This document shows, piece after piece, positions 24,314 to 27,693 of a stretch of DNA of 64,000 bases. This DNA is from Candidatus Bathyarchaeota archaeon (lineage in GTDB: Archaea; Thermoproteota; Bathyarchaeia; Bathyarchaeales; Bathycorpusculaceae). A program made the position numbers and the translations under genes. The notes beneath the pieces were generated by a model. It saw nothing but the letters and a program-made list of their open reading frames with translations, did no database searches and had not been told where the DNA came from. Each line of letters begins with the position of its first letter. Positions within the stretch are counted from its first letter, which is position 1. The stretch spans positions 2,688,001-2,752,000 of the forward strand of contig OY969706.1 of the NCBI GenBank assembly GCA_963702095.1. Direction: 5' to 3'.

Positions 24314-25864
24314 TTGATGGAGCAATCACCTTTGACAAGCAACATCGAATCAGCATACAGGGAACTTTTAGCTAAAAACAAAGACACAACAGTCCTCGGC
24401 ACGGCAGAGGGCATAATCCACTGGGACATGGAAACCATGATACCGCCCAAAGCCATCAACCAACGCAGCGAACAACTTGCATTGCTCAGCCGCATACATC
24501 ACAAACTGGGCACTGACCCTCAAATCGGCAAACTCTTAGGCACAATCCAAACCAGCCCAGAATACAGCAATTTTGGGCAAGTGGAAAAACGCAACCTCTA
24601 CCTCATCGACAAAGACTTCCGTGAACAAACCGCGTTGCCAGAGCGGTTGGTCGGGGAGTTGGCGATGCAGGAAGCCATCACCGTGAACGCTTGGAAGAAG
24701 GCGAAGGCAAAAAAGGAGTTCAACCTCTACAAAGCCGACCTGCAGAAGCTATTTGACCTAAGCATGGAAGCTGCGGAAATCCTCATGAAAGTCAAAGAAG
24801 TCAAAACACCCTATGAAGCTTTGATCGATAATTTTGAGCCGCAAATGTCGGTGGAAACCATCACCAAAACCTTCACCACCTTGCTATCTGGGCTTAAACC
24901 GCTGATCAGCAAGATCGAGGCTGCACAAACCCCATCCGCCCCCAACACACTCAACCACACCGTGCCAGTGGAAACCCAACGCAGAATCACCCAACTCGTA
25001 ACCCAAACACTGGGCTATGATACCGCTTCACCCGTGGCAGGCGGCAGAGTAGACGAAACCGAACACCCCTTCACAACAGGCTACTACGACGATGTCCGCA
25101 TAACCACACATTACTACCCAAACAATTTTGCCAGTTCCCTGTTTTCAGTGCTCCACGAGTCAGGACACGCCATCTACGAGCAAAACCTCCCAGAGAAATG
25201 GATGTACCAGCCCGTTGGCTCCACATGCAGCTATGGAGTTCACGAGTCGCAGTCACGTTTCTACGAGAACCTAATCGGACGTTCAGAAGAGTTCTGGACG
25301 GGTTTTCTCCCAAAAGCTAAGCAGGCAGCACCTAGCTTAAGCGAGATGCAACTGGAACCCTTCATGCAGGCAGTGAATAGGGTTGAGCGCTCGAAAATCC
25401 GCATAGAAGCCGACGAAGTCACCTACAGCATCCACATCATCATCCGCTTCGAGTTAGAACGCGACCTCTTTGGGGGCAAAATACGAATCGATGAGTTGCC
25501 GGCGGTTTGGAACCAAAAGTACGCTGATTACCTTGGCGTTAAGGTAGAGGATGATTCAGAAGGCGTTATGCAGGATACTCATTGGGCAAGTGGACTCTAC
25601 GGTTACTTCCCAAGCTATGCGTTGGGCAATATTTATGATGGGCAAATCAACACCGCCCTAGCCAAGGCATTGCCAGACGGGCAAAGCCAACTCTGTGAGG
25701 GAAAACTCGGCGAAGTCAACTTGTGGCTTAAAGAAAACATCCACCAAAGAGGAAACCTCTATGACCCCCAAGAACTCATAAAACTGGCAACCGGAGTAGG
25801 CTTGGATTCAGCGCCGTTTATCGACTACCTCAACAGGAAATATGGCAAGCTTTATGGTTTCTGA
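24314..25864 (+). CDS. M32 metallocarboxypeptidase
   Basis: HPF, DVRITT, HESGH, HESQ, IRIEAD, QDTHW, GYFPSY. Confidence 0.95.
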   Translation: MMEQSPLTSNIESAYRELLAKNKDTTVLGTAEGIIHWDMETMIPPKAINQRSEQLALLSRIHHKLGTDPQIGKLLGTIQTSPEYSNFGQVEKRNLYLIDKDFREQTALPERLVGELAMQEAITVNAWKKAKAKKEFNLYKADLQKLFDLSMEAAEILMKVKEVKTPYEALIDNFEPQMSVETITKTFTTLLSGLKPLISKIEAAQTPSAPNTLNHTVPVETQRRITQLVTQTLGYDTASPVAGGRVDETEHPFTTGYYDDVRITTHYYPNNFASSLFSVLHESGHAIYEQNLPEKWMYQPVGSTCSYGVHESQSRFYENLIGRSEEFWTGFLPKAKQAAPSLSEMQLEPFMQAVNRVERSKIRIEADEVTYSIHIIIRFELERDLFGGKIRIDELPAVWNQKYADYLGVKVEDDSEGVMQDTHWASGLYGYFPSYALGNIYDGQINTALAKALPDGQSQLCEGKLGEVNLWLKENIHQRGNLYDPQELIKLATGVGLDSAPFIDYLNRKYGKLYGF

Positions 25865-26049
25865 GGTGCGATAGTTTGTTTTTTGGTTAGTTCCTTGTAG
25901 ATGTAGAGTATGAAGTAGGCTGCGATGGAGCCGATGAAGAGGTAGATGCCAGTGTAGCCAACGATTGCGTTGTAAGTGTTGGCGCCGTAGAGGAAAAGCA
26001 GAAACCCAGCGATGAAAACAGATAGAAGGGTCCAGTCAGTCCATGACAT
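25852..26049 (-). CDS. small two-TM membrane protein
   Basis: Two hydrophobic helices; ATG at 26049 with GAGG upstream. Confidence 0.65.
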   Translation of the reverse strand: MSWTDWTLLSVFIAGFLLFLYGANTYNAIVGYTGIYLFIGSIAAYFILYIYKELTKKQTIAPQKP

Positions 26050-26144
26050 CAAAGTTCCTCTCTCAATAAAGGCATTCAATGAGAAACTGGGGATATAAAG
26101 ATTCAGGGAAAAAAGCGTTTAAAACTACGCTACAGAGAAAGATG

Positions 26145-26470
26145 TGTAACCGACAAATCGGTGCCAAAAAAGTTGGTGTCAATTACAAACGCCTTATGTA
26201 ACCCGACATTATTATATACAAGAGAACATACAGACAGCGATCGAGGTTAAAAAATGTCGGGAACCGACATAAAAAAGCCAGAAACACGCGAAGACTTTTT
26301 AAAAATGCTCATTGAAGCTGCAAAGAAAGAGGTAAACTCTAAAGGCAAGCCAGCAAAACCGACAGTTGTCGGAACAGCCAAAGAAATTAACATCCACAGA
26401 GACACACTTTACTCCTGGCTAAAAGAGTTTAATGTCGATTATAAGGAGATATTAGATCGTATGCCGACAA
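26145..26470. promoter_or_regulatory. cluster of CCGACA/TGTCGG sites, candidate operator array
   Basis: Sites at 26150, 26203, 26255, 26264, 26359, 26367, 26464; palindromes ATGTCGG-GAA-CCGACAT and CCGACA-GT-TGTCGG. Confidence 0.6.
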
Positions 26471-27693
26471 AACATGAGGACAAAAAAGAAAATTCAGGCC
26501 CAGTCTACTTGATTGGTGAATCATTAGTTGGGGAAGGAAACGAAGTTGCACACATAGACCTTATGATAGGCGACAAGAACGGACCAATCGGTCAAGCCTT
26601 CGCAAACGGTATGGCAAGCCTATCCGCGGGGCACACGCCGCTCCTCGCTGTCATCCGCCCTAACCTGCCGCCCAAGCCATACACACTAATTGTCCCAAAA
26701 GTCACCGTTAAAAACATGGAGGACACCGGCAAAATCTTCGGTCCAGCGCAGGCAGCAGTCGCAAAAGCCATCGCTGACTCAGCCGAAGAAGGCGTATTAC
26801 CAGTCGATAAACTCGACGATTGGGTCATCATCTGCAGTGTCTTCATCCACCCAAAAGCCACTGACTACCGCAAGATCTACCAGTACAACTACGGCGCAAC
26901 AAAGATGGCGCTACAACGTGCACTAAATAAGTATCCTTCACTGGAAAAAATCATTTACGACAAAGACCGTGCAAAACACCCGATCATGGGCTTCAAGGTT
27001 CCACGGTTATGGAGACCACCGTACCTCCAGATTGCGCTTGACGCACCCTCATTGGAAGGCGCAAAGAAAGTCATAGAGCAATTGCCGGGAAGCGACAGAA
27101 TCATAATTGAAGTCGGAACCCCACTCATTAAACGCTACGGCACACGCGCAATCGGTGAATTACGAACAGTAGCCAAAGACAAATTCATCATAGCCGACCT
27201 CAAAACCCTTGACGTAGGCAAAGTCGAAGCTGACATCGCCTATGAAGACACAGCAGACGCAGTCGTCGCAGCAGGTTTAGCGCCTCCAGAAACCCTTGAC
27301 GCAACCGTACAAGAAGCCAAGCGCCTAGGAATCTACGGAGTCATCGACATGCTAAACGTAGAGGATGTCCTCGCTAAGCTGAAGTCGCTAAAAGAATTCC
27401 CAGATATCGTCATTTTGCATCGAGGCATCGACCAAGAAAGCGGCAGAACCTGCGGTTTAGAACGCATACAGATGATCCGCAAAGCATTCCCCAACAAGAA
27501 ACTCCTCATCGCAGTCGCAGGCGGCATCATCCCCGAAACAGCTAAAGAAGCACTTGAACAGGGCGCAGACATAATCATCGTCGGCAGATATGTCACACAG
27601 AGCAGAGACATCGAACGGTCAGTGCGAGACTTCCTTGAATTGACGCCTTCAATGCGTGAAGACATCGACCTCTACAGAGTCCACACCGAATAA
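26254..27693 (+). CDS. fae-hps: HTH + formaldehyde-activating enzyme + 3-hexulose-6-phosphate synthase fusion
   Basis: IGESLVGEGNEVAHIDL, GHTPLLAV, FGPAQAAVA (Fae); PYLQIALD, IEVGTPL, ADLKTLD, HRGID, VAGG (Hps); extra ~80-aa N-terminal HTH. Confidence 0.92.
   Translation: MSGTDIKKPETREDFLKMLIEAAKKEVNSKGKPAKPTVVGTAKEINIHRDTLYSWLKEFNVDYKEILDRMPTKHEDKKENSGPVYLIGESLVGEGNEVAHIDLMIGDKNGPIGQAFANGMASLSAGHTPLLAVIRPNLPPKPYTLIVPKVTVKNMEDTGKIFGPAQAAVAKAIADSAEEGVLPVDKLDDWVIICSVFIHPKATDYRKIYQYNYGATKMALQRALNKYPSLEKIIYDKDRAKHPIMGFKVPRLWRPPYLQIALDAPSLEGAKKVIEQLPGSDRIIIEVGTPLIKRYGTRAIGELRTVAKDKFIIADLKTLDVGKVEADIAYEDTADAVVAAGLAPPETLDATVQEAKRLGIYGVIDMLNVEDVLAKLKSLKEFPDIVILHRGIDQESGRTCGLERIQMIRKAFPNKKLLIAVAGGIIPETAKEALEQGADIIIVGRYVTQSRDIERSVRDFLELTPSMREDIDLYRVHTE

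Follow-up and report, generated by a model that had tools for sequence, protein, structure and literature searches.

A predicted helix-turn-helix domain fused to the bifunctional enzyme Fae-Hps of Bathyarchaeia and an array of CCGACA boxes at its own promoter

Introduction

Methanosarcina barkeri has a bifunctional Fae/Hps enzyme, in which formaldehyde-activating enzyme (Fae) is joined to 3-hexulose-6-phosphate synthase (Hps). Methanogen proteins of this kind (NCBIfam NF009833) have the same two catalytic domains, in the same order, as the protein analysed here, which is encoded in a 64,000-nucleotide stretch (hereafter the window) of the genome of a Candidatus Bathyarchaeota archaeon (NCBI GenBank assembly GCA_963702095.1, contig OY969706.1, positions 2,688,001 to 2,752,000 of the forward strand). 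The tetrahydromethanopterin (H4MPT) pathway is present in this genome as well (Mch, E 1.6e-114). The NF009833 model spans 392 positions without an N-terminal DNA-binding domain, whereas the protein in the window starts with 84 extra residues, predicted to comprise a helix-turn-helix (HTH) domain and a linker. Among the uncultured archaea of sediments and soils, Bathyarchaeia rank with the most abundant and, to our knowledge, almost nothing is known about metabolic regulation in this group.

Enzymes that double as regulators are known from bacteria. The trigger enzymes PutA (a ribbon-helix-helix (RHH) domain joined to a proline catabolic enzyme), BirA and NadR combine catalysis with repression of their own or pathway genes under the control of their substrates. 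The N-terminal RHH domain of PutA parallels a second type of Fae-Hps from other Bathyarchaeia that is described below, but PutA, BirA and NadR are unrelated bacterial enzymes and the likeness in sequence is a generic RHH/ParD profile match only. Formaldehyde-responsive regulators are known as stand-alone proteins, namely HxlR, which activates the Bacillus hps-phi operon, and FrmR. These likewise control formaldehyde-handling genes, including hps, at the promoter, but they are separate sensors, whereas here the enzyme itself is the candidate sensor.

RbkR is described (PMC5397151) as an archaeal bifunctional riboflavin kinase/transcriptional regulator of the trigger type, found through comparative genomics of operator motifs. 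RbkR resembles the protein analysed here in being an archaeal metabolic enzyme with an N-terminal DNA-binding domain and conserved operator motifs. It differs in being a CTP-dependent riboflavin kinase with an unrelated DNA-binding domain and a multi-gene regulon, whereas self-regulation alone is indicated here. In the literature searched, which was partly accessible and did not extend to supplements and subscription journals, no paper attributes a DNA-binding domain to Fae or Fae-Hps. This agrees with a first-pass annotation of the window, made from the sequence alone, which was aware of no described enzyme-regulator with an HTH-Fae-Hps architecture. The enzyme part of the protein is an ordinary Fae/Hps, and fusions of enzymes with regulators are already known; what is new is the array of CCGACA boxes.

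Here we establish the architecture of this protein and its conservation among Bathyarchaeia, the array of boxes at its promoter and the co-variation of boxes and domain. Judged from these sequence data, Fae-Hps is probably an autoregulating enzyme-transcription factor, or trigger enzyme, whose HTH domain would read CCGACA boxes at its own promoter.

Results

An N-terminal domain ahead of a complete Fae-Hps

The gene and its parts are listed below. Nucleotide identities are mean pairwise values at codon positions 1/2/3 among 53 sequences, and pLDDT is the predicted local distance difference test score of the structural model.

26254..27693, + strand: the whole gene, HTH-linker-Fae-Hps, an ATG-started open reading frame of 479 amino acids plus stop codon
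26254..26460, + strand: N-terminal domain, residues 1-69 (mean pLDDT of the model 72.7; invariant residues; nucleotide identity 0.73/0.83/0.51)
26461..26505, + strand: variable, predicted-disordered linker, residues 70-84, starting at the non-conserved Met70 (pLDDT below 50 at residues 73-81; nucleotide identity 0.51/0.52/0.44)
26512..26988, + strand: Fae domain, residues 87-245 (PF08714, E 2.5e-70; PDB 1y5y, E 9.9e-44)
27019..27687, + strand: Hps domain, residues 256-478 (PF00215, E 1.1e-34; the NF009833 match reaches residue 478; PDB 9lj9_B, E 1.1e-29)

Pfam, NCBIfam and PDB searches confirmed the domain order, with Fae followed by Hps, which has the OMPdecase/HUMPS fold (PF00215 at residues 256-459). 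Residues 85-478 match positions 2-390 of the NF009833 equivalog model (E 5e-173) with a score of 575.6 bits against a cut-off of 274, as expected of a full-length bifunctional Fae/Hps. The first-pass annotation was therefore right that both enzyme parts are intact, and also that they are preceded by an extra N-terminal domain of about 80 residues, since residues 1-84 lie outside this match. The Fae model TIGR03126 scored 257.3 bits (cut-off 118) and the HxlA model TIGR03128 scored 135.9 bits, which is under its own cut-off of 200. By PDB sequence search, the Fae part aligns with Methylobacterium Fae (1y5y) and the Hps part with 9lj9_B and 3ajx. Both catalytic activities, the condensation of formaldehyde with H4MPT and the aldol cleavage or synthesis of hexulose-6-phosphate, are predicted for the 479-residue protein.

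The extension is widespread in Bathyarchaeia. At E <= 1e-3, residues 1-90 match 571 database proteins (263-839 amino acids), and the 120 of these that were listed are 74-100% identical over residues 1-90, every one of them with PF08714. Where sources name the Fae/Hps matches of the extension, the label is "bifunctional enzyme Fae/Hps" only. Among 401 sampled Bathyarchaeia genomes the extension is present in 127, with 128 matches, none of which contains a stop codon. In all complete frames it reads through into Fae-Hps, and nearly all of the open frames have about 477-612 amino acids; the shorter ones are in G130 (89 amino acids, contig end), G358 (345 amino acids, match near the contig start) and G392 (267 amino acids). 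The frame in G392 (L057, G392:C1:151481-153700) is an HTH-Fae frame whose Hps part may be split off or frameshifted, and its boxes are of an ACGACA variant. By family, the extension was found in 94 of 103 genomes of f1, 10 of 11 of f4, 18 of 18 of f5, 1 of 1 of f6, 2 of 2 of f8 and 1 of 2 of f17, and in none of the 25 genomes of f2 or the 71 of f22. Fae itself is present in 249 of the 401 genomes and, in families f1, f4, f5, f6 and f8, 125 of the 131 Fae-positive genomes carry the extension, so that its absence or lack of conservation in relatives, named in the first-pass annotation as a refuting outcome, is not what we observe. Four f1 genomes have Fae without an HTH match. In G364 and G400 the Fae match lies in a frame of about 500 amino acids, which in G400 (L111) is a DapA-like-Fae paralogue described below; G365 has a stand-alone Fae interrupted by TAA, and G369 has a contig-end fragment. 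None of the four is an informative HTH-less Fae-Hps.

The 84-residue extension alone retrieved 38 proteins among 1.84 billion cluster representatives, 25 of which were read individually. Eleven run on into the Fae motif YLIGE and eight end before it (too short, or frame lost). Three have no link to Fae: P0131 (153 amino acids), in which the HTH module has another C-terminal partner domain, and the short, possibly stand-alone proteins P0136 and P0144 (77 and 108 amino acids), which contain the same module. The remaining three, P0157 and the repeat proteins P0143 and P0148, are unrelated HTH proteins.

Several lines of sequence evidence indicate that the extension is real, translated and under selection, and no annotation artefact: its matches are stop-free and in frame, codons 1-69 have coding-type conservation by codon position (for comparison, identity is 0.83/0.94/0.43 in Fae), and a conserved TATA box and GAGG precede the first ATG. 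Many relatives have I, V or a different residue in place of the internal methionine at 26461 (Met70). Both the promoter signals and this lack of conservation favour the first ATG, the start assumed in the first-pass annotation, over Met70, whose use as the start was that annotation's other refuting outcome.

Predicted fold of the extension

Residues 1-84 include TVVGTAKEINIHRDTLYSWLKEF, the stretch that had been quoted as a Fis/transposase-like HTH. In an AlphaFold2 model based on an alignment of 28 sequences the extension forms a helix, an HTH and a further helix (helices at residues 12-30, 38-44 (HTH helix 1), 49-58 and 63-69), with residues 73-81 disordered. The predicted recognition helix (49-58) is HRDTLYSWLK, and a basic loop, KGKPAKPT, stands ahead of the HTH. 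In that alignment T37, A42, H48, R49, D50 and T51 are invariant and K8, P9, K35, P36, G40, T41, L52, Y53, W55, E58, V61 and F63 nearly so. Residues 1-69 are thus predicted to be a tri-helical HTH domain.

Pfam HTH families match residues 1-84 below threshold (HTH_29 E 0.014, HTH_28 E 0.016, GP3_package E 0.049, HTH_23 E 0.18). A VIA-align search of the model against 48,161 chains gave an AraC-type protein as its top row (3mkl, Z 6.2, 64 aligned residues, root-mean-square deviation 3.0; below significance), with further rows for sigma-28 region 4 (1rp3, Z 5.7), many TetR N-termini and the P22 small terminase (Z 4.5). The described rows of three fold searches are nearly all DNA-binding HTH proteins and otherwise other nucleic-acid-binding proteins, none of them significant. 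The modelled helices and the sub-threshold matches agree with the HTH claim; "Fis/transposase-like" amounts to a sub-threshold resemblance. When a profile of the extension was searched against PDB sequences, the hits were confined to Fae, a part of which some rows of the alignment include; the Bacillus phage protein 2ao9 is a weak match of the extension profile (E 0.1). Phage small terminases (P22 gp3, 3p9a; 2ao9; GP3_package) resemble the predicted arrangement in having short HTH copies round an oligomeric core and repeated DNA sites, but the core here is an enzyme, there is no packaging context and the matches are those sub-threshold ones. The motif xHRDTLYxWxKEF is also found in P0157, an unannotated protein of 161 amino acids that is terminase-small-like by reading of its sequence.

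CCGACA boxes in the promoter and 5' coding region

The elements at the promoter and in the first part of the coding region are as follows.

26150..26155, + strand: box 1, distal CCGACA at about -104; position and orientation differ among lineages
26203..26208, + strand: box 2, CCGACA 3 bases upstream of the TATA box, at the position of the transcription factor B recognition element (BRE); [C/T]CGACA in 51 of 54 relatives
26212..26218, + strand: TATA box TTATATA; region conserved in 12 of 12 aligned loci, most columns invariant
26243..26247, + strand: Shine-Dalgarno sequence GAGGT, 6 nucleotides before the ATG; in 12 aligned loci a conserved GAGG lies about 8 nucleotides before the first ATG, with AGG unchanged throughout and the G ahead of it in 90% or more
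26255..26260, - strand: box 3, TGTCGG (the reverse complement of CCGACA) over the start codon, Ser2 and codon 3; Ser2 is TCG in 51 of 52
26264..26269, + strand: extra CCGACA at +10, forming with box 3 the palindrome ATGTCGGgaaCCGACAT (26254-26270); in the window and L002 only
26359..26372, no strand: intragenic palindrome CCGACAgtTGTCGG, codons 36-40 (KPTVVG); the CCGACA half is conserved in relatives
26464..26469, + strand: intragenic CCGACA at +210, codons Pro71-Thr72; at +210 to +214 in most genus-level relatives

Upstream regions were compared from -130 to +21 around the start; exact duplicates, L023 (motif not located) and L061 (start not located) were dropped, leaving 54 sequences. CCGACA/TGTCGG is the commonest hexamer in this set, with 125 occurrences in 52 of the 54 sequences. 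Two of its sites are fixed, one on the plus strand at -53..-49, 3 bases ahead of the TATA box, and one on the minus strand at +1 within (A/G)TGTCGG, and extra copies are found at -107..-82 (plus) or -129..-81 (minus). The distal part aligns poorly, and there the hexamer is second in frequency to poly-A, with 24 occurrences in 20 of 54 sequences. In an alignment of 12 upstream regions, CCGACAtTnTTATATA is conserved some 50 bp ahead of the first ATG; its CGACA and most of its TATA columns are invariant. Box 3 is kept whether the start is ATG or GTG and whether residue 3 is Gly, Glu or Asp, whose codons all begin with G. The window has its hexamers at 26150, 26203, 26255 (minus strand), 26264, 26359, 26367 (minus strand) and 26464. 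The multi-site array at the promoter that the first-pass annotation described is therefore present, as seven hexamers within 26150-26469; spanning 314 bp, they are tied for the densest cluster in the genome. A direct-repeat finder detected no direct repeat families in 25860-26300, and the array emerged solely from the cross-genome alignment.

The boxes within the coding region are conserved at the nucleotide level. The Pro-Thr of KPT is encoded by CCG-ACA in 45 of 53 sequences, with further copies at +96 and +210. We calculated codon entropy for the first 260 codons, which include 92 conserved multi-codon columns. It is lowest at three of these, Ser2 (TCG, 51 of 52), Thr37 (ACA, 49 of 53) and Pro36 (CCG, 48 of 53), while the median top-codon fraction over the 92 columns is 0.50. 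In the genome of the window TCG accounts for 10.3% of Ser, ACA for 29.5% of Thr and CCG for 14.7% of Pro codons, and CCGACA encodes 5.0% of Pro-Thr dipeptides (n = 1713). These sequence comparisons indicate that nucleotide-level selection holds the boxes at synonymous sites in the N-terminal coding region.

Specificity of the array and its association with the HTH domain

The window lies in a single 2.94-Mb contig. Within this 2.94-Mb genome, CCGACA-N3-TTATATA occurs once among 185 TTATATA sites, and CCGACA is absent upstream in 92 generic TATA-type promoters, where the upstream region is A/T-rich. Box 2 is therefore not the general BRE. The Fae-Hps gene start is the only open reading frame start in the genome with four boxes in -130..+21. 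The other 44 candidate starts have two or three, mostly inside coding sequence, and the single start with three is the Met70 start of Fae-Hps itself. Clusters of at least three hexamers per 170 bp number 10 in this genome, against 3.2 +/- 1.8 by random placement; of the nine other clusters three were inspected, and these lie inside a P-type ATPase, a dapB-like gene and a Pro/Thr-rich linker (genome positions 2627683, 2839004 and 399007). Two promoters with two boxes each, those of an acyltransferase_3 gene (near G000:C1:195589, L118) and a phosphoribosyltransferase gene (2782532, L119), were set aside as weak leads with a chance-level number of boxes.

For comparison, we took 20 Fae loci in which the HTH had no match, five of which (L064, L068, L071, L075 and L078) were left out of the evaluation. 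CCGACA/TGTCGG is absent within up to 330 nucleotides upstream of 10 extension-less Fae-Hps genes, one of which (L069) is partly masked. In one genome of the same genus, G127 (L076, G127:C5:25000-26300), the HTH has been deleted in frame, from about residue 13 to residue 79 (MSGTEVKKPENR-ASGPTYLIGES). Its boxes carry single-base changes, the TATA-proximal one being CCGgCA and the one at the start (ATGTCAGG) being TGTCaG.

Among sequences with the extension, an Arg follows HRDTLY in the recognition helix in L056, L057 and L062 only, and the same three have deviant proximal boxes (CCGGCA in L056, ACGACA in L057 and L062), the other 51 having [C/T]CGACA. This pairing may reflect protein-DNA covariation. 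As expected of a trigger enzyme, the enzyme and the predicted DNA-binding domain are part of one polypeptide, and an operator-type motif is conserved at its own promoter and appears, from the sequences, to co-vary with that domain.

A second fusion with a ribbon-helix-helix domain

Four control loci, from families f19 and f22, have a different extension of 56 amino acids (MSEDKGLVRAPGRITxEQYxFLEELVxQGRYxSxSEAxRAAxxRF). It was found in 42 of the 401 genomes. The matches in 39 of these are strong (E <= 2.4e-12), and nearly all of them lie in frames as long as Fae-Hps, about 430-490 amino acids; the three weakest are in frames of 56-189 amino acids. Loci of this type are L077, L079, L080, L082 and L084-L102, from other Bathyarchaeia families. 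A profile of the 56-residue extension matches ParD (3kxe_C, E 1.7e-4) and five further ParD/CopG-family (CopG/Arc/MetJ) rows at E <= 0.052. Its Pfam matches are below threshold (ParD_antitoxin 19 bits against 21, RHH_1 13.7 against 20.5), and its model has an extended N-terminus followed by helices at residues 16-27 and 34-49. From profile and model together we identify it as an RHH domain (CopG/Arc/MetJ/ParD).

Promoters of the RHH type have their own motif, GTGACAC/GGTCACA, which differs from CCGACA. All 13 of the non-redundant sequences have GTGACAC at about -123 and, immediately ahead of the TATA box at about -72..-54, the composite GTGACACnnnGAGGTCACA. Two unrelated DNA-binding folds on the same enzyme, each with its own promoter motif, are the strongest argument for a regulatory fusion.

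Discussion

Proposed mechanism and its weaknesses

In its catalytic role Hps would interconvert hexulose-6-phosphate with ribulose-5-phosphate and formaldehyde, and Fae would condense formaldehyde with H4MPT. The HTH, on its flexible linker, would make this enzyme a sequence-specific DNA binder with CCGACA (core CGACA) as its target. Such targets adjoin the BRE/TATA region, cover the start codon, and lie about 50 bp further upstream and within the first 215 bp of the coding region. Sites that overlap BRE/TATA are a common mode of archaeal repression; occupied BRE-adjacent and downstream boxes could block recruitment of TFB/TBP or the progress of RNA polymerase, resulting in self-repression. 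Fae forms pentamers, and the crystal entries 1y5y and 1y60 of the Methylobacterium enzyme (two entries) hold 10 chains. As the Fae core is oligomeric, several HTHs would probably be displayed at once, giving a cooperative grip on several boxes. A candidate effector bound to the enzyme domains (formaldehyde, hexulose-6-phosphate/ribulose-5-phosphate or H4MPT/methylene-H4MPT) could alter DNA binding. Of this mechanism, the parts that we infer are the binding to DNA, the direction of the regulatory effect, the display of several HTHs by the oligomer, and the effector.

We also put forward, tentatively and with some doubt, a broader version. Across a large part of the class Bathyarchaeia, Fae-Hps, a central C1/pentose enzyme, may have become a metabolite-sensing transcription factor on two or more independent occasions, with HTH and CCGACA in one order and RHH and GTGACAC in other families. 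The oligomeric heads would grip about 300 bp of their own promoter and 5' coding region, and ligand or catalytic status would set the level of the enzyme, as a formaldehyde/pentose homeostat that needs no separate sensor.

Fae-Hps stands where toxic formaldehyde freed by pentose synthesis enters the H4MPT C1 pathway. Should the enzyme sense this flux and act as a repressor of its own gene, it would be a new archaeal trigger enzyme. That HTH and RHH domains have been fused independently suggests that a coupling of Fae-Hps to its own promoter has been selected strongly and repeatedly, and the synonymous constraint points to candidate operator boxes within the same stretch of coding sequence that specifies their predicted reader. 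The motif is precisely defined, and recombinant protein and synthetic DNA would be enough for a test, so that culture is not needed. The system could also serve as a compact formaldehyde- or sugar-phosphate-responsive switch for synthetic biology.

A number of points weigh against autoregulation by the HTH domain. No Pfam HTH family out of HTH_28, HTH_29, HTH_23, GP3_package and HTH_Tnp_1_2 reaches its gathering threshold (the best, HTH_29, scores 15.9 bits against 28.1), so the domain is filed under none of them. Foldseek searches of the model against PDB and BFVD gave nothing significant (best E 0.37 and 0.25, respectively), and VIA Z values of up to 6.2 or Foldseek E values of 0.25 and above may reflect a common helical arrangement and are no proof of homology. 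Archaeal BREs can be of the CGAAA type, which the TATA-proximal box resembles; it sits exactly at the BRE position and, taken alone, could be a promoter element. The genomes are related and not independent, meaning that conservation counts overstate the evidence; the HTH deletion is known from a single genome, and the pairing of Arg and box from three sequences in two families. The oligomeric state of the fusion is deduced from the Methylobacterium Fae entries and from what is generally known of Fae. The distance of the coding-region box differs among families, from +96 to +117, so fixed helical phasing is not conserved, and a model with strict 52-bp phasing (window boxes at about -104, -52, +1, +105 and +210) was dropped for this reason. 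Finally, the genome of the window, in which three of the nine other dense clusters were inspected, yielded no further promoter with a convincing array of boxes. The regulon would therefore be the gene itself, leaving the motif without independent confirmation.

Alternative explanations

Several of these points would fit a module that is a genuine HTH-like domain and yet no regulator of its own promoter, acting instead in nucleoid tethering, oligomerisation or contact with a partner; the boxes would then be a lineage-specific BRE plus the sites of another regulator. Fold matches below significance, the BRE position of box 2 and the lack of additional regulon members in the genome of the window are all compatible with this. 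We nevertheless consider it unlikely: a BRE leaves the boxes at the start codon and at codons 36-37 unexplained, the boxes have decayed in the HTH-less G127 and are absent from the 10 extension-less promoters, they covary with a residue of the recognition helix, and the RHH-type fusions have different boxes of their own.

Action at the level of RNA is a second possibility. Either the TGTCGG at the start would pair with a downstream CCGACA of the transcript or the protein would bind the message that encodes it, and autoregulation would be translational instead of transcriptional. Box 3 and the later boxes are within the transcript, and synonymous constraint is compatible with RNA structure. Folding of the window mRNA predicts hairpins at the start codon (AUGUCGGgaaCCGACAU) and at +105 (minimum free energy -50.2 kcal/mol, z -1.95), and ATGTCGGgaaCCGACAT and CCGACAgtTGTCGG are perfect local palindromes predicted to form mRNA hairpins. 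However, the z-score is modest, the local palindromes, at +10 and +113, are present in few relatives only, and sequences with a TGTCGA start (L008, L024 and L034) have no compensating change at +105. The most conserved box is upstream of the TATA box and hence outside the transcript, as are the distal boxes. An RNA-level explanation is, on this evidence, quite improbable.

A start at Met70, which would leave an ordinary Fae-Hps with an extension that is an artefact or used only sometimes, has in its favour an SD-like AAGGAG 12 nucleotides upstream in the window and the presence of Met70 in many genus-level relatives, and internal initiation may yield an extra HTH-less isoform in the genus of the window, but as an account of the gene it is very hard to reconcile with the replacement of Met70 elsewhere, the coding-type conservation and invariant residues of codons 1-69, the 128 of 128 stop-free, in-frame matches and the conserved signals before the first ATG.

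Flanking genes and related loci

The Fae-Hps gene appears to be monocistronic. It is flanked on one side by a divergent small membrane-protein open reading frame and an M32 carboxypeptidase gene and on the other by a convergent gene for a transporter of the major facilitator superfamily. Two features belong to the divergent side.

26092..26103, - strand: GATATAAAGATT, conserved in 12 of 12 aligned loci and the probable TATA region of the small divergent gene for a membrane protein
25852-26079, - strand: divergent small open reading frame of 65-75 amino acids, with two predicted membrane helices and no Pfam match

The distal CCGACA box lies between the two divergent promoters, and the small membrane-protein gene could therefore be co-regulated.

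An equivalog-level 6-phospho-3-hexuloisomerase, Phi (TIGR03127), was not found in the genome of the window; the best match scored 68.7 bits against a cut-off of 160. It is a 393-residue frame with two SIS domains (G000:C1:1258750-1259481, L115).

The genome of the window has a single Fae match. The same family includes genomes with a second Fae paralogue, in which Fae is C-terminal on a DapA/dihydrodipicolinate-synthase-like aldolase (492-495 amino acids; L114:511-1989, plus strand, and L111:1486-2973, minus strand); a methyltransferase-like gene comes next.

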